A stretch of DNA of 64,000 nt, taken from assembly GCA_037305845.1 (NCBI GenBank), contig CP147778.1:3104001-3168000 (forward strand). Direction: 5' to 3'. This stretch comes from Candidatus Freyarchaeum deiterrae. Lineage in GTDB: Archaea > Asgardarchaeota > Jordiarchaeia > Jordiarchaeales > Jordiarchaeaceae. The position numbers and the translations under genes were made by a program. The notes beneath the pieces are model-generated. The model made no database searches. It had not been told where the DNA came from and was given only the letters and a program-made list of their open reading frames with translations. Below, piece after piece: positions 15,616 through 31,136 of the stretch. The stretch's first letter is position 1; every line of letters begins with the position of its first letter.

Positions 15616-16022
15616 TCATCTTAGCTTATCGCCCAGCTTACCTGATACAAATTTTTTGATTTTTATACACAACTCCACTGCTTCTTTAGCTTTGTCTATT
15701 GTTATTTCCTCATCAAGTACACCAGGATATCTTATTTCAACCGCGTAGGGTGTAAGTTTTTCTCCCATTTCCGAGATTTTTTTAAAACTCTTATCTATTT
15801 ATGCGGCTAATAGTATAAGGTCACCTAAATTATGAGTTTTTCAAATTCTATTCCGTGATATATGAGGAACGCTTTCAAATATTTTTCAGCACATTGCTGA
15901 GCATGGAAACAAATAATATCCAATGGTGGCTCGGGCAGTATATTCAATAAATTTTCAGCTGTAATTAAATCATTCTCTGCCTTCTTTATCCAAAATTTCA
16001 CAAGATCAATCTTTTCTTTCAT
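15616..16022 (-). pseudogene. HEPN domain protein (MNT-HEPN pair), disrupted
   Basis: ICFHAQQCAEKYLKA; 1-nt frameshift in an A-run at ~15840; continues KTHNL..., in-frame TAA at ~15800, then LTPYAVEIRYP. Confidence 0.85.
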
Positions 16023-16359
16023 AGACTACTCGCCCTTTCCTCACAATCGTCGTTATGAACGCCTGAGAAACATTCTCCCATTCCTTTACCATCCTTGGAG
16101 TTACAACCACAATGTTCTTTGGAATAAGAATCCCCGTAAGGGCACTATAAGCCTTAACCGTCATATCGTATTTGGGGATGCTGTCGTCATCAATAACGAT
16201 AAGGATGTCGAGATCACTTCCTCTGTGAGGTTTACCATATGCCCAAGAACCAAAAAGAATTATCTTCAACGGATTCAAAACACTTAGAATCCTCTTCACA
16301 ACCTCTTTTACCAGTTTCTCATCCACTTTTTCAACTTTTACCAATTCAACCTTATCCAC
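16006..16359 (-). CDS. Minimal nucleotidyltransferase (MNT) antitoxin
   Basis: IILFGSWAYG....SDLDILIV; overlaps the HEPN start. Confidence 0.9.
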   Translation of the reverse strand: MDKVELVKVEKVDEKLVKEVVKRILSVLNPLKIILFGSWAYGKPHRGSDLDILIVIDDDSIPKYDMTVKAYSALTGILIPKNIVVVTPRMVKEWENVSQAFITTIVRKGRVVYERKD

Positions 16360-16983: not shown

Positions 16984-17190
16984 ATGAATGAAGTCAAGAA
17001 GTGCCCCGAGTGTGGTGGAGAACTTGAAAAGGGTTTCGTACATGTTCCACGAGGACTTTTTTGGGACACGAAGGAACATAAATATGGTATTGGCTCTTCA
17101 GAAAGATTACTGTCTTCGTGGTCTTGGACTATGCCGAGAGCTAGCGGTTTGATATGTAAGAACTGCAGACTTGTTCTATTTCATTATTGA
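16984..17190 (+). CDS. Small zinc-ribbon protein, copy 1
   Basis: CPECGGELEKG...CKNCRLVLFHY; GGAGG SD. Confidence 0.8.
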   Translation: MNEVKKCPECGGELEKGFVHVPRGLFWDTKEHKYGIGSSERLLSSWSWTMPRASGLICKNCRLVLFHY

Positions 17191-17216: not shown

Positions 17217-17321
17217 CTATATGACCTGTGGTTTGAATTCTCCAAATACCTCCCTTTACACTTCGCACATTTCTCCAAGTGTTGCGTAGGCTTTAACCGT
17301 CTCTATTAGGGTTAGCATTAG
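17217..17321 (-). pseudogene. Relic copy of the 3' end of the methylmalonyl-CoA mutase gene
   Basis: Translates [33 protein letters not shown]; the intact gene ends [34 protein letters not shown]. Confidence 0.9.
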
Positions 17322-17466
17322 AAAGGTTTCTGAAGAAGTTGTGGTTTTTTTCGAAGGAGGATTCTCATAGATATTCTCCAATTCAGAAAGGCTTATGAAA
17401 GGTTAAACTCAATTGAAAACTTATACTGGGAAACTCTTGGAATAACAAAAAAGAAGGTGGTAATCT

Positions 17467-17844: not shown

Positions 17845-19920
17845 TCATATAACTTGTGGTTTGAATTCTCCAAATACTTCCCTTAACACTTCGCATATTT
17901 CTCCAAGTGTGGAATAGGCTTTAACTGTCTCTATTAGAGTTGGCATAAGATTATGTTTTTCATCTTCGGCTTCTTTTCGCAGTTTTTCAAGAAGGCTTTT
18001 AACAAGCTTGTTATCTCGTTTAGCTTTGATTTTTTGTAGGTTTGAAATCGCCTCTTTCTCAATCTGGGGGTCAATTTTTTGTAGGGTGAGCTTTGGTTCT
18101 TCTTCGGTTTGAAACTTGTTCAGACCTACGATGATTTTCTCGTTTCTTTCCACTTCCTTCTGGAACTTGTAGGCCATTGCAGCTATTTCCTTCTGGACGT
18201 ATCCCTTCTCTATGGCTTTCACCATTCCTCCCATCTCATCGATATCTTTGATGTACTGGGTAGCTGCGTCTTCCAGTTTGTCTGTTAGGGTTTCTGCGAA
18301 GTACGATCCGCCAAGAGGGTCTATGGTGTTGGTAACCCCGTTCTCGTAGGCTAGTACCTGTTGGGTTCTTAGCGCTATTGTTACCGATTCTTCGGTTGGG
18401 AGGGCTAGGGCTTCGTCTCTGCTGTTGGTGTGCAATGATTGGGTTCCTCCCAGTACCGCCGCCAATGCTTGGATCGCTACCCTTATGATGTTGTTCTCGG
18501 GTTGCTGGGCGGTTAGGGTTGATCCGGCGGTTTGAGTGTGGAATCTCAGTTGCATGGAGTTTTCGTCCTTGGCCTTGAATCGATTCCTCATTATCTTGGC
18601 CCAGAGTCTCCTCGCAGCTCTGAATTTTGCGACCTCTTCAAAGAAGTCGTTGTGAGAACTGAAAAAGAAGGACAGTCTTCCCGCGAACTGGTCTACATCT
18701 AATCCTCTCTTCAGAACCGCGTTCACGTAAGATATGCCGTTAGCTAGAGTGAATGCTACCTCCTGTATGGCGTTTGAACCAGCTTCTCTTATGTGGTATC
18801 CTGAGATGGATATGGGATTCCATCGGGGCATATTTTTTGAGCAATACTCTATCACATCAGAAACTAGCCGCATGGAGGGCTCTGGGGGGAAAATGTATGT
18901 TCCTCGGGCGACGTACTCTTTCAGAATATCGTTCTGCACGGTGCCTGAGAGTTTTGAGACATCCACTCCCTGCTTCTGGGCAACCGCAATATACATGGCT
19001 AGTATGATTGCAGTGGGAGAGTTAATAGTCATAGATGTGCTGACCTTATCTAACGGTATTCCCTCAAACAGAGTTTCCATATCCTTCAGAGTGTCTATGA
19101 TTACACCCACTCTACCAACTTCTCCCCGGGCCAAAGAGTGGTCGGAATCATAGCCCATCTGTGTGGGGAGGTCGAAAGCTACGCTGAGACCAGTCTGTCC
19201 CTGCTCAATGAGATATTTGAATCTACGGTTGGTTTCCTTCGCGGAGGCGAATCCAGCATACTGCCGCATGGTCCATAAGCGTCCCCTATACATGGTGGGG
19301 TAAACGCCTCTGGTGAAAGGATATTCTCCGGGTAATCCCAGCACTTCAGAATAGCTTTTTCTAACTTGGTCAAGTGGAGTGTAGATTCTCTTCTCTTCTA
19401 TTTCCGACGCTGAGGAGTACTTTTTTTCACGTTCCGGATTCTTTTCTAAAAACTTTTTGAGCTTTCCTTCCTCCCATTTCTTAAGCTCTTGCTCCAAGCT
19501 TTCCTTATTATCTTCATTTTCTTTTTCGTCCAATTTACTAGCACTCTCGCTATCCAATTTAAAAATGATGCCAAAAGACGGCTTTCCCTCGGAGTCCACC
19601 GATACCTGACCGTAAGTCGGTTTAACTCTCATTCCTATCTCTACTTTTTCCTTTTCGGATATCTGCCCAAAGGCTCTAATCCCGTTATCAAATTCTACTA
19701 TTCCAAAAACATATGGAGGTTCACCTTTTAGGGTTTCAGGGAGAGCGTAAAGCTTTGTAAAGGTTATGACCGTGCCTCTGTCTAAGGGTTCAGGGTAAAT
19801 ATTCTCAAATTCTGAGGACCTACATTTAATACATCTCACCCTTCCTGGGAACTGAATTTTTCCGCATCTTTTACATTTGATCCGCAGTAATTCTGCCATT
19901 ATTTTCTCCTTTTCCTCCAT
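17845..19920 (-). CDS. Methylmalonyl-CoA mutase large subunit with an N-terminal DUF35 (Zn-ribbon/OB-fold) fusion
   Basis: About aa 1-125: [32 protein letters not shown]. Then [51 protein letters not shown]. Confidence 0.92.
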
Positions 19921-20138
19921 TCGAGAATCACCCTTCAATTTTATGCGTGCACTAATCCACTTTTGGTGGACAATTCAAATATATAAATCATTTCAATGGT
20001 TTTAAATCAAGCCCAATTTTTAATTTTAATCTTTTTGGTGAGAAATATCTAGAAATGCACAAAGACTTGAAATAGTGTACTTTTTTCCTATTAGAACCCT
20101 TTAAAGATACTTCAAATAATAGTCTATTGGTCATAGGA

Positions 20139-20344: not shown

Positions 20345-21214
20345 GTGGCTCTGTTGAAAGTTTTAATAATTTATTTCTCTCAAACTGGCGGAACTGAAAA
20401 AATAGCTGAAATGGTCCAAAGAGGCATTCTGAAAAGTGGTAATAACTGCGAAATTGCCCGAATTAAAAATGTAAATATGAAAAGGTTAAAGGCTTTTGAT
20501 TTAATTGGCATCGGCACCCCAACCTTCTTTTACAGGGAACCAGTTAATGTTAAGAATTTTATCCAAAAAATCGATATTATGAACGGGAAACACTGCTTTA
20601 TTTTATCGACACATGGCAGTATAATAGGAAATACCCTATACTACATGAAAGAGGAATTAAGCGAAAGAGGCTTTTTGGTAATAGGTTCGTTTGATTCGTA
20701 TTCCAGCACTTCCCTTCAATTTTATCCAAAAATTATGCATACTGCTAATCATCCTGATGAAATTGAACTTGAAGAGGCAGAAAAATTCGGGGAAAAAATA
20801 TGCGATATTAGTTCAAGAATTAAGAAAGGGGAATCGGAATTGATCCCAGAGTTTGAATTAATTGACACCACTTGGTGGGCGAATGATTCAAAAAAGGCGA
20901 CACCAGAATCATTAAGAAATTTTTCTCCCAAATTAAAAATAAACCTCGATAAATGCACAAAGTGTTTAGCATGCCAAGAAAACTGCCCCGTAAACGCAAT
21001 TAATGTAGAAGCCAACCCTCCCGAAATTCAAAATGAGGGATGCATTTTTTGCTGGTTCTGTGAAAAGTTGTGCCCCGTTGGAGCAATTGAAGCGGACTGG
21101 TCTTTAATGAAAAAGATAGTGAAACCTAACTTGAAAAAATATATTGAGATTTTAAAACAAGCAGAAAGAGAAGGAAAATTCAGACCTTACGTTGATTACG
21201 AAAAAATATATTAA
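20345..21214 (+). CDS. Flavodoxin + 2x[4Fe-4S] ferredoxin protein (EFR1-like)
   Basis: YFSQTGGT flavodoxin loop; CTKCLACQENCP and CIFCWFCEKLCP. Confidence 0.88.
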   Translation: MALLKVLIIYFSQTGGTEKIAEMVQRGILKSGNNCEIARIKNVNMKRLKAFDLIGIGTPTFFYREPVNVKNFIQKIDIMNGKHCFILSTHGSIIGNTLYYMKEELSERGFLVIGSFDSYSSTSLQFYPKIMHTANHPDEIELEEAEKFGEKICDISSRIKKGESELIPEFELIDTTWWANDSKKATPESLRNFSPKLKINLDKCTKCLACQENCPVNAINVEANPPEIQNEGCIFCWFCEKLCPVGAIEADWSLMKKIVKPNLKKYIEILKQAEREGKFRPYVDYEKIY

Positions 21215-21320
21215 AATAAATCATTCTCCAGAGTCTACGTTATCCAGTGAGTGGAGTAAACGCTTCTCAATAAAAAAAGAAGAAAAAGGATTGGAGCGAT
21301 TTTACTTGGTACTCGCATCA

Positions 21321-21515
21321 TTATGTTTGTCCTTTTATTTGCTTTAGTTTCTCTTCTACGCCCGTAAGCTCTTTTTGTAACTGCTTCTTGTAGCTTTCTA
21401 GTATCTCTGCCTCTTCCTCAGAAGTCATGAATCGTCTCATTCCTAAACAACCACAACCACCATATTCAGACTTTACTAATTTGCGAGATTGTGCTCCTGT
21501 AAAACATTCACACAT
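21321..21515 (-). CDS. Small Cys-containing coiled-coil protein (DUF5320-like)
   Basis: RRF.T.EEE...LE.Y...L..EL..VEE.L pattern; GGAGG SD. Confidence 0.6.
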   Translation of the reverse strand: MCECFTGAQSRKLVKSEYGGCGCLGMRRFMTSEEEAEILESYKKQLQKELTGVEEKLKQIKGQT

Positions 21516-21622
21516 TTTTTTATCGCCTCCTATACTTTATTCTTAATAGTAGATATAGATAGTAAAGTATTTAAACTATCAAGTTTATAGTAATATAGAA
21601 AGTTAAAAAAAGGTTACATACT

Positions 21623-22027
21623 ATGCAAAGAGAAAGTAAGAATCAGTGTACCAATCATTGTACCGATAGAAACGACGGAAAAAATGAAATTTGTTTTTGC
21701 CCAATTGAAGGTATCATAAACACTATCAGCAAAAAATGGGCACTACAAATCATTGCCACAATAGGCAATAATAAAAAATTAAGATTCAACAAAATTATGG
21801 AAATCTTAGGAAATATAAGCCCAAAAGCATTAACAGATAAATTAAAAGAATTAGAAAAAGCAGGATTAATAAGAAAGGAAATTTTTGCAGAAATACCACC
21901 CAGAGTAGAATACTCATTAACTCAGGATGGATTCGAACTTAGAGACTCAATTATGCCATTAATGGAATGGGCTTCCAAAAAAGAAAACATGAAGTGCAAC
22001 CATAAATGTGAAATACTCCCAGATTAA
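21623..22027 (+). CDS. HxlR-family winged-helix transcriptional regulator
   Basis: CPI...ISKKW, RFN, ISPKALT..LKELE..GLI....EIPPRVEYSLT. Confidence 0.92.
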   Translation: MQRESKNQCTNHCTDRNDGKNEICFCPIEGIINTISKKWALQIIATIGNNKKLRFNKIMEILGNISPKALTDKLKELEKAGLIRKEIFAEIPPRVEYSLTQDGFELRDSIMPLMEWASKKENMKCNHKCEILPD

Positions 22028-22522
22028 GCATGAAGTGTTCCTGTGGGGGAGAAGATTAGTATTTTTTAGAAACCACAAAAAATTATCTCTTCTTGTTTTC
22101 ACATTTTGGTAGGACTGCGTTCCACTGCTTCTCAAGACTTTCATTTGCGCCGTAAACACAGTTTTCTTCCAACCACTGCACGACAATTAAAGATTGAGTC
22201 TCCCGACGAAGTAGAAAAAGTATATAAATTTTTTAATTGCGTTTAATTACAGCGAGTTTGTTTCTAAAAGGGAAAGCGAAAAATAGTGTCGAGCTTTGGT
22301 AAAAGCACTCTTGGCTCATTCAACTACAAATGAAACAAAATAAGATGAACTGAGAAATCATCAAGCCCATTGTGTTCAATATTTCAATTTGTTTGAAAAC
22401 TAACAATTTTTAGGCACCTCATCAACCCCTAGTCCCTGAATTCTAGCTTCGCTCCAAATTTGTGTTTATTCTTGTACAGCTCGCAAAAATTAACCTTTTC
22501 TGTAAATTAGGAAGGTGAAAAA

Positions 22523-22834
22523 ATGAAAATTGGAGCTAATCTAAATACTCTAATTGTTTTTTTGTCCGTCGTAGGTGTCTTAAACCTAATTGATTTGGTG
22601 GAAACTAATTTTGCTTTATCAAATGGATTTGTAGAGTTGAACCCAATAATGGCGTGGATGTACGGTAATAATTTGATGACAGTCTTTAAAATATTGATGG
22701 TAACTATCCAACTTCTAGTTACCTATAAATTATTCAAAATGGGAAGCGAAAAACTATCAATAGGGATTACTGTAGGTAGCATAGCCTATTATGCATTTAT
22801 TGTTGTGTCAAATTTTGTCCATTTAATAGGCTAA
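22523..22834 (+). CDS. Small membrane protein (DUF5658-like)
   Basis: LNLID...T..AL..G..ELNPIM, K in a hydrophobic helix. Confidence 0.65.
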   Translation: MKIGANLNTLIVFLSVVGVLNLIDLVETNFALSNGFVELNPIMAWMYGNNLMTVFKILMVTIQLLVTYKLFKMGSEKLSIGITVGSIAYYAFIVVSNFVHLIG

Positions 22835-22987: not shown

Positions 22988-23941
22988 TTATTTCAGGACG
23001 TTCATTATTATTCCTGCTAATTCTTCACCTTTTGGAGCTTTTTTTACTAGCTCTTTTAGTTTAGGCCCTATTTCTTCAGGCTTCCAGTATCCTGGTGGAC
23101 TGCGTTTAACCGCCTCGCTGGACTTCCAGCTTTGCATTACCCACAGGTTTCCGCCAACCACCCTGATCACCTGGCCGGTTATGTCTTTGGCGTCATCCGA
23201 AGCCAGATAAACGACTAGGGGTGCCATAGCTTCCGGTCCTAGGGGGTCGTATCCGTATCTTTTTTCAAAGTCCTCCTTGGTTCCCATCAGGGGTGCCATG
23301 GATGGAGTGGCCTCGGTTGTTAAACGGGTTCTAGCTACTGGTACTATCACGTTCGCTGTTACTCCGTATTTTACCATTTCTTTGGCTGCGATGAGTGTGA
23401 AGGACGTTATCCCTGCTTTTGCGGCTCCGTAGTTGCTCTGACCGGGATTGTAGAGTAACCCTGCATCAGAGGTGGTGCTTATCAGTCTCCCTGCGACTGG
23501 TTTTCCCTCTTTTGATTCAGCTCTCCAATAGTTGCAGGCGTGTCTGGTGCAGTTGAAAGTTCCCTTTAAGTGAACCGCTATAACAGAGTCGAACTCCTCC
23601 TCTTCCATGTTGAAAATCATCTTGTCCCTGAGAATTCCCGCATTGTTAACCAGAATATCCAGCCTACCGAATGTGCTTATAGCTTGGTCTATTATATTCT
23701 TTGCACCCTGAAAGCTGGTAACGCTCTCATAGTTTGATGCAGCCTGACCTTTCATCTTCTTGATCTCTTTAACCACATCGTCCGCTGGTCCCTGGAACTC
23801 ACCCTTTCCATCGTGACTTCCACCCATATCGTTAACAATCACTTTTGCCCCGTGCTTTGCGAGTAGTAAGGCTTCTTCTCTGCCTAACCCTCTTCCAGCA
23901 CCGGTTACTATAGCTACCTTTCCTTTAAGTGATATCGACAT
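22988..23941 (-). CDS. Short-chain dehydrogenase/reductase (3-hydroxyacyl-CoA/HSD17B4-like)
   Basis: TGAGRGLG, VNDMGG, NNAGILRD, NYGAAKAG (YxxxK). Confidence 0.92.
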   Translation of the reverse strand: MSISLKGKVAIVTGAGRGLGREEALLLAKHGAKVIVNDMGGSHDGKGEFQGPADDVVKEIKKMKGQAASNYESVTSFQGAKNIIDQAISTFGRLDILVNNAGILRDKMIFNMEEEEFDSVIAVHLKGTFNCTRHACNYWRAESKEGKPVAGRLISTTSDAGLLYNPGQSNYGAAKAGITSFTLIAAKEMVKYGVTANVIVPVARTRLTTEATPSMAPLMGTKEDFEKRYGYDPLGPEAMAPLVVYLASDDAKDITGQVIRVVGGNLWVMQSWKSSEAVKRSPPGYWKPEEIGPKLKELVKKAPKGEELAGIIMNVLK

Positions 23942-25377: not shown

Positions 25378-26550
25378 TCATCTTTGGAAAATGTGCACCA
25401 CAATATTGTTGCCAAAGCCCCCGAAATTAACGGACAATGCTGTTTCTGCACCGGACACTTGGCGTTTATCTGCTTCTCCCCTCAACTGCCATGTGATTTC
25501 TACTGCCTGAGCCACACCGGTAGCCCCTACAGGGTGCCCCCTTGCCTTTAACCCCCCACTGGGGTTTATGGGGAGTTCACCCTCAAGGCCGGTTTTGCCT
25601 TCCTCCACTGCTTTTGCCCCTTCTCCTTTTTTGAAGAATCCCACATCCTCGGATTGAATTATTTCTAATATGGTGAAGGCGTCGTGCAGCTCCGCGAAAT
25701 TGATATCTTTCGGTTTGATTTTTGCCATGGTGTAGGCTTTTTCTGAGGCTTTTCTCAAAGCTTCTAAAACAGTGGGGTCATCGCGTTCGGCAACTATTTG
25801 AACATCTGTAGCCTGTCCAACTCCTTTAATCAGTACCGGTGTGTCACTGTACTGCTTCGCCTTCTCAGCCGGGCAGAGCACTAGGGAAGCCGCGCCGTCG
25901 CTTACCGGACAAACATCATATAGGCGGAGCGGATCTGCAACAATCGGTGAAGCTAATGCCTTCTCGAGTGTTATTTCCCTCTGAAAGTGAGCGAAGGGAT
26001 TGAGAGCTCCATTTTTGTGATTTTTAACCGCTACTAGGGAAAGTGACTCGCGTTTGACGTTGTATTTTTTCAGATACAACCGGGCTAGAAGCCCACCTAA
26101 AGAGGGTAGTGTGACACCATACTTATATTCGGCACTTTGGTGTGTTAGGGTTGCCACGGCGGAGCTAACACGGGGATTCGGCAAAGAGGTCATTTTCTCA
26201 ACCCCGGTAACCAGCACGAGATCGGAAACTCCGGACGCAACTGCTTGAAAACCCTCCTTGATCGCCGAGCCCCCACTAGCGGGGCCGTTCTCAATCTTAT
26301 CCGCGGCTGCCGGCATCAAATTAATTCGATCCGCAAGGACGCTCGCGATTCCCGTTATTTTATTAAACTCACCAGAAAACATGTTACCCACATAAACCGC
26401 GTCGAAATCACTTTCAGAGGCGTTAGCGTCAGAAATAGCCTTCAGAGAAGACTCCACCATCAGGTCAGTGAGAGACTTGTCTTCCAACTGCCCAAACCGT
26501 GTCATACCACAACCAATAATAGCAACACCTTGCATGTCCAAAACCCTCAT
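25378..26550 (-). CDS. Thiolase-fold protein (SCP-x/archaeal type) lacking catalytic cysteines
   Basis: GMTRFG, GVEKM, CPVSDGAA, ELHDAF, NPSGGLKARGHPVGATG; nucleophile motif reads ENGPASG instead of xxCASG. Confidence 0.9.
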   Translation of the reverse strand: MRVLDMQGVAIIGCGMTRFGQLEDKSLTDLMVESSLKAISDANASESDFDAVYVGNMFSGEFNKITGIASVLADRINLMPAAADKIENGPASGGSAIKEGFQAVASGVSDLVLVTGVEKMTSLPNPRVSSAVATLTHQSAEYKYGVTLPSLGGLLARLYLKKYNVKRESLSLVAVKNHKNGALNPFAHFQREITLEKALASPIVADPLRLYDVCPVSDGAASLVLCPAEKAKQYSDTPVLIKGVGQATDVQIVAERDDPTVLEALRKASEKAYTMAKIKPKDINFAELHDAFTILEIIQSEDVGFFKKGEGAKAVEEGKTGLEGELPINPSGGLKARGHPVGATGVAQAVEITWQLRGEADKRQVSGAETALSVNFGGFGNNIVVHIFQR

Positions 26551-29137: not shown

Positions 29138-29563
29138 CTATTCGTAGAGTTCCTCCTCGCTGACCAGTTTGAATCCCTCATCTCTCAGTGCCTCCATAGC
29201 GGTTTCCATATCGTAAACCCTTAAAATCATGATTGCTTTCCCCTGCTTCATGGTGGTGTAAACATACTCTATATTTACGTTCTTTTCTCCCAAAACAGTC
29301 GCTATCTCATACAAGCCTCCAGGTTTATCCGCAGCCTCCACCGCTATAACATCAGTTTCCGAAACCAGAAACTCACTGGTCTTCAAAATTTTTAGGGTTT
29401 TATCCGGGTTGTCCACTATAATCCTAACAATTCCATAATCCGCGGTATCAGCAACTGTAAGAGCCCTCATATTTATTTCATTATCCAGCAGTATTTTAGT
29501 TAACTCCGCCAAGGTGCCCGGTCTATTCTGAAGAAAGACCGAAATCTGTTTGACCATCTTCAT
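29138..29563 (-). CDS. Tandem ACT-domain protein
   Basis: QISVFLQNRPG.L, INMRAL..ADT.DYGIVR, DKPGGL, NIEYVY; typical paaK neighbour. Confidence 0.9.
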   Translation of the reverse strand: MKMVKQISVFLQNRPGTLAELTKILLDNEINMRALTVADTADYGIVRIIVDNPDKTLKILKTSEFLVSETDVIAVEAADKPGGLYEIATVLGEKNVNIEYVYTTMKQGKAIMILRVYDMETAMEALRDEGFKLVSEEELYE

Positions 29564-29581
29564 CTATTCCTCCTTTATCAC

Positions 29582-30895
29582 CTAAACATTTTCTTTCCTC
29601 AAGTCTATAACCCTTTTCGCCTTACCCATAGATCTGGGAATCTTGCCAGGGGCAACCAGTTCAATATTAGCCTTCACTCTGAGCGTCTCGAACAACTCAT
29701 TTTCAACTTTTCTCTGGAAGTTCTCCAAGTCTTTGACTTCATCAGAAAATACTTCCGGAGTAACCTCAATCCTAACTGTTAAAATGTCTAGGATGTCTCG
29801 GTCAACCAATATCTGATAATTCTCACTGACACCCGGAATCCCCATCAGAATATGCTCTACCTGCGACGGATACACGTTTACTCCTCTAATAATCAGCATG
29901 TCGTCCGCTCTACCAGTAACTTTGCTCATTCTAGCCATTTCTCGTCCGCAGTTACACTTCTCATAGTCCAAAGATGTTATATCATTAGAAATGTACCTGA
30001 GTAAGGGAATTCCCTCCTTAGTTAGAGTAGTGAACGTAAGAACACCTTTCTCTCCGGGTGAAACCGGTTCCTTCGTATCGTTGTCAATAATCTCTGGAAT
30101 AACCAAATCCTCCCATATGTGTAATCCATTCTTCTCGGGGCATTCTACGGATACTCCTGGTCCGTAAATCTCGGAGAGTCCGTATATGTCGAAAGCATCG
30201 ATGTTTAAAGCTTCCTCGATTTTGTCTCTAAGAGTCTCTGAAGAGGGTTCCGCTCCAAAAATCCCTATACGTAGCTTGATATCTTTTGAAAAGTCAACCT
30301 TTTCCTGCTTAGCATACTCCGCTATGTAAAGGGAGTACGAGGGAGTGCAGGTAAGAATTGTTGAGCCGAAATCCTTCATCAACTTTATCTGAAGGGCTGT
30401 GTTTCCGCCAGAAATCGGAATAACCGCTGCACCAATCCTCTCACCGCCGTAATGGAATCCCAGACCACCCGTAAATAATCCGTAACCGTAAGCGTTCTGT
30501 AGAACGTCACCCTTGTGACCCCCAGCGCAAGTTATAGTGCGAGCCATCATCTCGGTCCAAGTCTCAATATCGTTACGAGTGTAACCTACAACGGTAGGCG
30601 ACCCACTGGTCCCTGAACTGGCATGCAGCCTAACAATCTCTTCCAAAGGCTTAGCAAACATTTTAAACGGATAGTTATCCCGGAGATCAGTTTTCAGAGT
30701 GAGGGGAATCTTTGCAATGTCCCCAACAGATTTAATATCTCCTGGCTTTATTCCTGCCTTCTTAAATTTCTGATTATAGAAAGGAACATTATCGTAACAG
30801 TATTTGACCATGTTCCTCAATCTCTTAGACTGGACCTCCTTAATTTCCTCTCTCGAAGACAATTCTACATCCTTATTCCAGTACAAGTAATCCAA
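29582..30895 (-). CDS. paaK: Phenylacetate-CoA ligase family protein
   Basis: HASSGTSG, YGYGLFTGGLG, CTPSY, GAEP, YGLSE, GRADDMLIIRGVNVYPSQVE; probable start TTG 30895 (ORF open to 30949). Confidence 0.92.
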   Translation of the reverse strand: MDYLYWNKDVELSSREEIKEVQSKRLRNMVKYCYDNVPFYNQKFKKAGIKPGDIKSVGDIAKIPLTLKTDLRDNYPFKMFAKPLEEIVRLHASSGTSGSPTVVGYTRNDIETWTEMMARTITCAGGHKGDVLQNAYGYGLFTGGLGFHYGGERIGAAVIPISGGNTALQIKLMKDFGSTILTCTPSYSLYIAEYAKQEKVDFSKDIKLRIGIFGAEPSSETLRDKIEEALNIDAFDIYGLSEIYGPGVSVECPEKNGLHIWEDLVIPEIIDNDTKEPVSPGEKGVLTFTTLTKEGIPLLRYISNDITSLDYEKCNCGREMARMSKVTGRADDMLIIRGVNVYPSQVEHILMGIPGVSENYQILVDRDILDILTVRIEVTPEVFSDEVKDLENFQRKVENELFETLRVKANIELVAPGKIPRSMGKAKRVIDLRKENV

Positions 30896-31136
30896 GTGAA
30901 CACACCTTCCTAGCCAACTCCAAACTCGATAATAAATTATCACAGCCAAGATTTAAACTAGGAAAACCACATATAAATTCTCAAACTTATTTTTATTCCT
31001 TTTTACGCTCTCCACAAAGCATTTCTAAACATTAAGGAGCTCAAAAATAAAGAAATTCGACGCTTAATATTCATTGCACATATCAAAACCATAATTAAAA
31101 AGTTATGAATATTCTAAATTTAGGGAGGGTTTAAAA

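Follow-up and report, generated by a model that had tools for sequence, protein, structure and literature searches.

To our knowledge, the only known role of DUF35 proteins is that of scaffolds, which connect thiolase-fold enzymes with either HMG-CoA (3-hydroxy-3-methylglutaryl-coenzyme A) synthase-like proteins or MaoC hydratases. Every DUF35 that has been solved structurally flanks a thiolase-fold dimer (PMC12329534). In the archaeal complex of thiolase and HMG-CoA synthase (HMGCS), DUF35 contributes to the CoA-binding site, and natural fusions of HMG-CoA synthase with DUF35 (HMGS-DUF35) exist; in steroid catabolism, a DUF35 carried by a hydratase on a flexible linker docks a thiolase-fold aldolase that has no nucleophilic Cys, the domain being C-terminal in ChsH2 and N-terminal in Shy (PMC12329534, PMC12960953). 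Here we describe a gene of the Asgard archaeon Candidatus Freyarchaeum deiterrae in which a DUF35 domain is joined to the large subunit of a mutase of the methylmalonyl-CoA mutase (MCM) type. It lies in a stretch of 64,000 nucleotides (contig CP147778.1, positions 3,104,001 to 3,168,000), called the window below, within a closed, single-contig genome of 3.58 Mb (G000); other labels in G, L and P stand for the genomes, loci and proteins that were compared with it. Judged from gene content and alignments, the fused protein is probably an MCM large subunit that is tethered, through its DUF35 domain, to a dimer of the thiolase-fold protein encoded at 25378-26550.

The closest described systems are ChsH1-ChsH2(DUF35)-Ltp2 (6OK1) and Shy(DUF35)-Sal, in which a non-thiolase enzyme likewise bears a DUF35 on a flexible linker (N-terminal in Shy) and the thiolase-fold dimer is likewise without the Cys (PMC12329534). 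These systems tether a MaoC hydratase, whereas here the tethered enzyme is a B12-dependent acyl-CoA mutase, and the host belongs to the anaerobic archaea and offers no steroid context. The archaeal thiolase/HMGCS/DUF35 complex (6ESQ) is comparable in that its DUF35 serves as scaffold, linking a thiolase-fold protein to a second enzyme from the same pathway, with which it is naturally fused in some cases. There, however, the second enzyme itself has the thiolase fold and the thiolase is competent, whereas in the present case a TIM-barrel mutase takes that place and both Cys are missing from the thiolase-fold protein. The architecture of the DUF35-tethered two-enzyme complexes (ChsH2-Ltp2, Shy-Sal and HMGS-DUF35) is matched, with a partner that is encoded separately, and in an operon in other lineages; the two reactions may be consecutive here as well.

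Structure of the fused gene

The gene is a single open frame, uninterrupted over 17845..19938 on the minus strand. The ATG at 19920 was chosen as the start codon because the N-termini of the relatives all read Met-Glu-x-Lys, and this gives a product of 691 residues plus the stop. A first-pass annotation of the window had described a DUF35 (Zn-ribbon/OB) domain fused through a charged linker to a mutase large subunit. The fusion is borne out by the single reading frame, by the Pfam domains and by the C4 ribbon. The OB_ChsH2_C profile matches residues 47-101 with 42 bits (cut-off 27.1), and zf-ChsH2 matches residues 15-39 with 21.8 bits, slightly below its cut-off of 23.2. The zinc ribbon has the spacing C-x2-C-x10-C-x2-C that is canonical for DUF35 (PMC12329534), the same as in the ChsH2-Ltp2 and Shy-Sal systems, with all four ligands intact. 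Of the solved structures, the best sequence match of this part is the DUF35 of the archaeal complex (6ESQ_E, E 5.7e-12), and BbsA is also matched (7PXP_A, 6.3e-8). The mutase part is matched by MM_CoA_mutase (PF01642) over residues 171-684 with 777 bits, covering positions 3-512 of the 512 in the profile, that is, a complete barrel.

AlphaFold2 models the whole fused protein with moderate confidence (predicted local distance difference test, pLDDT, 73.7; predicted template-modelling score, pTM, 0.67). The block-mean pLDDT is 71-91 over residues 1-120, which are predicted to form a beta-rich domain, and it falls below 50 at residues 126-137, in the linker. Unfused mutases, and the 2-hydroxyisobutyryl-CoA mutase (HCM) large subunit HcmA, align with the fused protein from about residue 139 onward, so that the new linker amounts to some 16 acidic residues, approximately 123-138. 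The linker is thus charged, as had been noted, but it is shorter than was implied. The same annotation placed the B12-binding small subunit of the mutase outside the window, correctly: such B12-binding domains as the window does encode are those of a 219-residue corrinoid protein and of radical-SAM enzymes.

Origin and inheritance of the fusion

The two halves of the gene occur as separate genes in the same genus. In G003 and G005 there is a separate DUF35 gene of about 120 residues, which ends about 20 nt before the mutase gene with its own GAGG and ATG start. In G002 and G004 DUF35 and mutase lie in one frame and are parted by a TAG alone. When the DNA is aligned, the GAG codon of the window falls exactly on this TAG, which indicates that the fusion arose by a single T to G stop loss (TAG to GAG) between adjoining genes.

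Two further assemblies, from different projects, carry the fusion: P0003 (locus L049, on the 195-kb metagenome contig Ga0315314_1000035) and P0004. Both proteins are about 90% identical to that of the window, with a common Ser-Glu-Ser junction. Between G000 and L049, at a synonymous divergence (dS) of about 0.8-0.9, the ratio of non-synonymous to synonymous change (dN/dS) amounts to 0.096 in the DUF35 part and 0.049 in the mutase, with 0.29 in the linker between them. The fusion has been inherited in at least three lineages, with both halves under purifying selection. The first-pass annotation had held that a fusion unique to this assembly, through a lost stop codon, would count against its reading; the stop codon is indeed lost, but the fusion is not unique. 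Since the junction differs from that of the relatives by one base, at the stop codon itself, one might think of an artefact of assembly or sequencing, or of a pseudogene heading for decay. This is scarcely credible: the genome is closed in a single contig, the same junction is present in the two other assemblies, and selection on both halves is strong, with the zinc ligands and the active-site residues of the mutase intact. Recurrence of the junction elsewhere and selection effectively refute an assembly artefact, which was rejected; with three independent assemblies and both halves under purifying selection, the gene is not a decaying one either.

The domain-architecture search that had been suggested found the fusion in three clusters, two besides that of the window. 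A region search with residues 1-130 among 5.8 billion clustered proteins gave only these three DUF35-mutase clusters, and so did a profile search restricted to longer proteins, which is weak evidence of absence. In an exhaustive phmmer search with the DUF35 domain, nearly all of the best 150 matches had 91-203 residues; six were longer (312-1455 residues), and none had about 690. As far as these searches reach, no such fusion occurs outside a single sub-clade of one genus. The close homologs belong to Candidatus Freyarchaeota, Jordarchaeia or Jordarchaeum (Asgard archaea).

Identification of the putative partner

In three genomes of the sister family (G007, G008 and G009), an SCP-x-type thiolase-fold gene of about 385 residues immediately precedes the DUF35-mutase pair, with frames that abut or overlap. 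The operon of G007 runs from an AtoB-type thiolase through the Cys-less thiolase-fold gene and DUF35 to the mutase. The 25378-26550 product is 72-73% identical to the thiolase-fold protein of these three genomes, and none of the six other thiolases in G000 exceeds 44% identity to it; this identifies it, on sequence identity, as the ortholog of the operon gene. The closed genome encodes seven SCP-x-type thiolases and seven DUF35 domains, and six of each are adjacent pairs. This leaves one of each: the thiolase-fold gene 25378-26550, which alone has no adjacent DUF35, and, at a distance of 5.6 kb on the same strand, the DUF35 of the fused gene. In a tree of DUF35 sequences, the fused domain forms a clade (99/97 support) with 12 other sampled DUF35s that stand beside orthologs of this thiolase family, the other DUF35s of the genome being outside it. 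In two families DUF35 and mutase have remained neighbours (2-30 nt), even though in the genus of the window the thiolase gene has moved off. It is worth adding that two other loci of G000, C1:2816955-2818438 (-) and 595499-597363 (-), contain a DUF35 in a 472-residue stop-to-stop frame beside its thiolase, which may be a further fusion or simply a frame that is open far upstream, and a seventh, distant thiolase-like protein with Gly at the nucleophile site.

Alignment to 6ESQ and 7YVY places Pro90 of the partner (in ENGPASG) at the position of the nucleophilic Cys (Cys85 of the 6ESQ thiolase), and HDAF replaces HDCF, the motif that holds the acid/base Cys, both His motifs being retained. With these two replacements the protein cannot be a thiolase, and an active thiolase was rejected as partner, both catalytic Cys being lost. 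The ENGPASG/HDAF state is common to all orthologs in the order. The same signature occurs at 55-65% identity in metagenome-assembled genomes (MAGs) labelled Hadarchaeales, Helarchaeota, Gemmatimonadota and unclassified bacteria, with Thr and Ser variants of it in Thermoproteota and Archaeoglobi. Outside the genus of the window, all these lineages have a DUF35 gene directly 3' of the thiolase-fold gene. Invariant residues specific to this Cys-less family include His137, Tyr142, Arg75 and Arg209.

The best match of the partner among solved structures is ST0096 of Sulfolobus tokodaii (4YZO, 'thiolase-like protein', 336 bits), which likewise has no nucleophilic Cys. Its structure is solved; a literature search found no paper on its function, and no link to a mutase was found in the searchable literature. 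The SCP2-thiolase-like protein of Trypanosoma brucei (TbSLP, PDB 5AB4-7) is also a Cys-less relative of SCP2-thiolase, but it has no DUF35 and its motif is YDCF rather than HDAF; here too no mutase link was found in the searchable literature. TbSLP decarboxylates malonyl-CoA weakly, with a kcat of 0.005 s-1 (PMC12329534). A literature search combining SCP2-thiolase-like protein with malonyl-CoA decarboxylase gave nothing relevant.

A conserved protein of about 210-250 residues, without a Pfam match ('fam2'), flanks the pair of Cys-less thiolase and DUF35 in Hadarchaeales-like, Thermoproteota, Gemmatimonadota and other bacterial MAGs, and in L059 and L060 an aldehyde:ferredoxin oxidoreductase is found near the pair and fam2. 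No homolog of fam2 was found in the genome of the window.

Association with the mutase in other lineages

The three genes are also found together well away from the order of the window. In Archaeoglobi JdFR-42 an operon contains mutase, B12 small subunit, MeaB, Cys-less thiolase and DUF35, and in the Lokiarchaeon CR_4 the order is Cys-less thiolase, DUF35, mutase. In the loci examined, all mutases adjacent to the Cys-less thiolase/DUF35 pair are of the MCM type, and the gene orders indicate that the pair was associated with MCM before the fusion took place. Across the 11 genomes of the order, mutase and thiolase ortholog are both present in nine; G010 has the DUF35-mutase at a contig edge, and G006 (95% complete) has neither mutase nor thiolase ortholog. 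A quick mutase tree groups the triad-linked mutases of the order with that of CR_4 (SH-like approximate likelihood ratio test 98), with JdFR-42 nearby and the MCMs of other Asgard families separate; the placement of CR_4 is unsure because its own long branch joins another long one in this tree. In CR_4, the Cys-less thiolase gene upstream of the DUF35-mutase is split into two overlapping frames (L073:7157-8135), which may be a frameshift or an assembly error.

Type of mutase

The mutase part scores 829 bits with TIGR00641 (cut-off 304). The NCBIfam equivalog model NF006944 gives 683 bits against a cut-off of 876, this model including a B12 domain that is absent from the fused protein. Alignment with the MCMs of P. 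shermanii, human and M. tuberculosis (1REQ_A, 2XIJ_A and 6OXC_A) places Tyr221, Arg339, Tyr375 and His376 at Tyr89, Arg207, Tyr243 and His244 of the P. shermanii enzyme. The Tyr of RQYAGF and the Arg of KEYVARG, which had been singled out as MCM-type residues in the first reading, are present as Tyr221 and Arg339. Overall the mutase part is most similar to HcmAB (PDB 4R3U; HcmA 633 bits), but its specificity residues are of the MCM and not the HCM type: at the discriminating sites HcmA has Ile, Asp and Gln, where the fused mutase has Tyr, Ala and Arg. A specificity for 2-hydroxyisobutyryl-CoA or isobutyryl-CoA (ICM type) was rejected on these residues, and by its active site the fused protein is classed as an MCM-type large subunit.

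A large subunit of about 555 residues without a B12 domain is also found in the split-subunit acyl-CoA mutases (McmA with McmB and MeaB; HcmAB), and the mutase part is 68-70% identical to proteins from Thermoanaerobacter and Tissierellales. Those mutases have no N-terminal DUF35, in contrast to the fused protein, and their usual neighbours are carboxyltransferase and epimerase, neither of which was found in this genome or order. The genome has three acyl-CoA mutase large subunits, of which only the fused one is of the MCM type. A candidate small subunit for it is encoded at G000 2566903-2567286, 62% identical to the small subunit in the MCM operon of JdFR-42, and MeaB at G000 1417191-1417970. 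The other two large subunits, at G000 C1:3220451-3221992 (+) and 3243189-3244742 (-), are an ICM-type mutase (RMFSGY, KEYIAQ; Phe and Gln at the specificity sites) and a divergent third one, which has unusual specificity-site residues and its own adjoining B12 small subunit (3242796-3243131).

Proposed complex and alternative explanations

We propose the following origin and function. The ancestor would have had an operon headed by the Cys-less thiolase-fold gene, with the DUF35 gene immediately upstream of the gene for the MCM large subunit. A change of T to G at the DUF35 stop joined both proteins through the flexible acidic linker of about 16 residues. Following the pattern of all solved DUF35 complexes, the DUF35 domain would bind to the side of the thiolase-fold dimer, and each dimer would carry two tethered mutase large subunits, to be completed by a B12 small subunit and MeaB from separate genes. 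Such a complex would couple the isomerisation of succinyl-CoA and (R)-methylmalonyl-CoA to a non-thiolytic reaction in the active site of the thiolase-fold protein. The parallel would be with the steroid hydratases, whose DUF35 docks the next enzyme, a Cys-less thiolase-fold aldolase. That the mutase is tethered to the 25378-26550 product had been suggested in the first-pass annotation, and comparative genomics supports it, through orthology, the unpaired thiolase, the DUF35 clade and the trio in other phyla. The annotation had added a channelling of acyl-CoA; the channelling of a thiolase product is the wrong picture because the partner, without its catalytic Cys, is not a thiolase.

The fusion could instead be selectively neutral, a stop having been lost between abutting, co-translated genes. 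The DUF35 would then serve the thiolase-fold protein and the mutase would be an ordinary MCM, with no consecutive steps and no channelling, and the operon would reflect shared regulation of acyl-CoA metabolism. Such an origin needs one nucleotide, the nearest relatives function unfused, and only three fused clusters were found among the 5.8 billion clustered proteins. Moreover, channelling has been doubted even for the complex of hydratase-DUF35 and aldolase, owing to its flexible linkers (PMC12329534), and in G063 the thiolase/DUF35 pair occurs without any mutase. We regard this explanation as rather unlikely, given that DUF35 and mutase have stayed adjacent across two families despite the departure of the thiolase gene in the genus of the window, that the trio is met again in Archaeoglobi and Lokiarchaeota, accompanied by the complete MCM set (small subunit and MeaB), that mutase and thiolase ortholog were lost together in G006, and that the triad-linked mutases cluster in the quick tree. 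Selection should also have acted against a tethered domain of about 560 residues that disturbed docking, and yet both halves have dN/dS below 0.1. Another proposal would have the DUF35 act on the mutase itself, by binding or gating the CoA ester or by replacing a missing subunit contact, and dock no thiolase-fold protein at all. The contribution of DUF35 to the CoA-binding site in the archaeal thiolase/HMGCS complex (PMC12329534, PMC12960953) makes this conceivable, as does the genus of the window, where DUF35 stays beside the mutase gene while the thiolase gene drifts about 5-21 kb. It is nevertheless improbable: the solved DUF35s all flank thiolase-fold dimers (PMC12329534), the fused DUF35 belongs to a clade that is encoded right after Cys-less thiolases, most of them with no mutase nearby, and 25378-26550 would be left as the only thiolase of the genome without a DUF35. 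The AlphaFold2 model, with its low-confidence linker and its pTM of 0.67, gives no sign of a fixed intramolecular interface, as far as these scores can tell.

Some observations weigh against a tethered complex of mutase and Cys-less thiolase, which we still consider probable. The Hadarchaeales-like G063 has the Cys-less thiolase/DUF35 pair and no mutase at all, so that the reaction of the pair would there be independent of MCM. In the genus of the window the thiolase-fold gene lies 5.6-21 kb from the DUF35-mutase and is not co-transcribed with it. The restriction of the fusion to one sub-clade of one genus means that the covalent link is dispensable. Finally, an internal TTG (Leu130, 19531-19533) stands at the position of the mutase start in G002 and G004, and may still yield some unfused mutase.

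Possible reaction of the complex

If the complex exists, the reaction coupled to the mutase could be enolate chemistry on methylmalonyl-CoA, namely a biotin-independent decarboxylation to propionyl-CoA. This is the weakest step of the proposal and is put forward tentatively. It is favoured because the oxyanion-hole His is kept, the covalent nucleophile is lost, the link to MCM is found in three lineages, and neither carboxyltransferase nor epimerase was found in the genomes. No PF01039 carboxyltransferase turned up in the closed genome or anywhere in the order (11 genomes); nine other Asgard genomes do have it, frequently only a few kb from MCM. The genomes of JdFR-42 and CR_4, whose completeness is not established, gave no match to it either. 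For methylmalonyl-CoA epimerase, the genome has no match to TIGR03081 or Glyoxalase_4. The failure to find either enzyme would allow a biotin-free decarboxylation of methylmalonyl-CoA.

Against this guess, the genome has 13-14 crotonase-family genes, so that a YgfG-type methylmalonyl-CoA decarboxylase is possible among them, and the sole biochemical precedent, the T. brucei protein described above, acts on malonyl-CoA at its very low rate (PMC12329534). Open alternatives for the partner are an aldol or retro-aldol reaction, or the binding of CoA esters without catalysis. The partner does not match the retro-aldolases of the Ltp2/Sal type: those enzymes are defined by a YDCY or YDHF motif (PMC12329534), with Gly at the nucleophile site, whereas the partner has HDAF and Pro, and so lacks their catalytic Tyr (and the Cys or Tyr), which speaks against an aldolase of this type.

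A bolder suggestion, and an unlikely one, is that the Pro-for-Cys protein with its DUF35 represents a new kind of enzyme acting on the product of the mutase, for example a biotin- and epimerase-independent (R)-methylmalonyl-CoA decarboxylase. With MCM it would then form a module from succinyl-CoA to propionyl-CoA, which Jordarchaeales, some Lokiarchaeota and Archaeoglobi would use in place of the carboxyltransferase route. The fusion would be Rosetta-stone evidence for the complex.

Significance of the fusion

That the fusion had not been described before was the expectation of the first-pass annotation, and this holds in the searchable literature, where searches for DUF35 with methylmalonyl-CoA mutase, and for Freyarchaeia with methylmalonyl-CoA, gave nothing relevant. 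In our assessment it is a variant of the known principle of tethering by DUF35, and it marks a probable complex of mutase and Cys-less thiolase. If this is true, the complex is one that is not yet described, and the docking principle of DUF35 extends to the B12 radical mutases, quite a different class of enzyme. The fusion also provides a functional lead for the widespread thiolase look-alikes with Pro at the nucleophile position, which are routinely annotated as acetyl-CoA acetyltransferase or thiolase and for which our literature search found no functional study. In Jordarchaeales, which possess an MCM-type mutase, neither carboxyltransferase nor epimerase was found, and the complex may explain their connection between succinyl-CoA and propionyl-CoA, a point of relevance when Asgard fermentative metabolism is reconstructed. 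As a reagent the fused protein is handy too, since one polypeptide should pull down the partner.

Neighbouring genes

The features of the locus are collected in Table 1.

Table 1. Coordinates of the fused gene, its parts, the inferred partner and other features. Positions are those of the window unless a locus label is given.
Feature	Position	Strand	Basis or remark
Fused DUF35-MCM large-subunit gene	17845..19920	-	691 residues; monocistronic here; upstream divergent plus-strand gene at 20345
DUF35 domain, residues 1-122 (C4 zinc ribbon, then OB fold)	19555..19920	-	Pfam, PDB matches, AlphaFold2
C4 zinc ribbon, Cys16/19/30/33	19822-19875	-	Motif positions
Acidic linker, residues 123-138	19507..19554	-	Former intergenic spacer and mutase 5' end, read through; alignment, AlphaFold2
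GAG (Glu125), at the TAG stop of the DUF35 gene in G002 and G004 of the same genus	19546..19548	-	DNA alignment
MCM-type acyl-CoA mutase large subunit (substrate-binding barrel without B12 domain)	17848..19506	-	PF01642, TIGR00641
SCP-x-type thiolase-fold protein, inferred docking partner	25378..26550	-	Pfam; alignment to 6ESQ/7YVY/4YZO; orthology
Short-chain dehydrogenase/reductase (SDR), like MFE-2-type (3R)-hydroxyacyl-CoA dehydrogenase, between partner and fused gene	22988..23941	-	Pfam; best PDB match 2ET6
Flavodoxin/2x[4Fe-4S], HxlR regulator and DUF5658 genes, between fused gene and SDR	20345-22834	+	
Conserved protein of about 210-250 residues ('fam2')	L059:1634-2269, L060:9544-10179, L065:7240-8001, L067:7298-7972, L063:273-650		Adjoins Cys-less thiolase/DUF35 pair

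Orthologs of the SDR are found about 3 kb from the thiolase-fold gene in L052, L054, L058 and L064, and a paralog is directly upstream of the DUF35-mutase in L041, L042 and L049. The SDR is tied to the system by conserved neighbourhood only; it fits a context resembling beta-oxidation and does not decide the chemistry. The locus has been rearranged in this genome, because L049, L041 and L042 have the SDR paralog directly upstream of the DUF35-mutase in place of the three plus-strand genes. In G002, short SDR fragments of low identity lie just upstream of the DUF35-TAG-mutase (L043:6128-6402) and look like the remnant of a pseudogene.

About 500 bp downstream of the intact fused gene there is a relic of the 3' end of the mutase (17220-17339, minus strand), of about 40 codons, 70-75% identical and with one internal stop, adjoined by a DUF6487 zinc-ribbon reading frame at 16984-17190 (plus strand). 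In G002 a radical-SAM gene follows the mutase after about 480 nt. With only this distance there, and the mutase relic here, the 2.4-kb stretch downstream of the fused gene looks like the scar of an insertion or duplication. Inside it, on the minus strand, HEPN-like fragments (15825-16022 and 15616-15768) come after an MNT-type nucleotidyltransferase (16006-16359); together they resemble a toxin-antitoxin pair with the HEPN gene apparently split.

A PaaK-type phenylacetate-CoA ligase and a protein with a pair of ACT domains (29138-30949, minus strand) are encoded upstream of the thiolase-fold gene, in the same orientation and beyond a DUF2284 gene; they may supply an aryl- or acyl-CoA to this neighbourhood.

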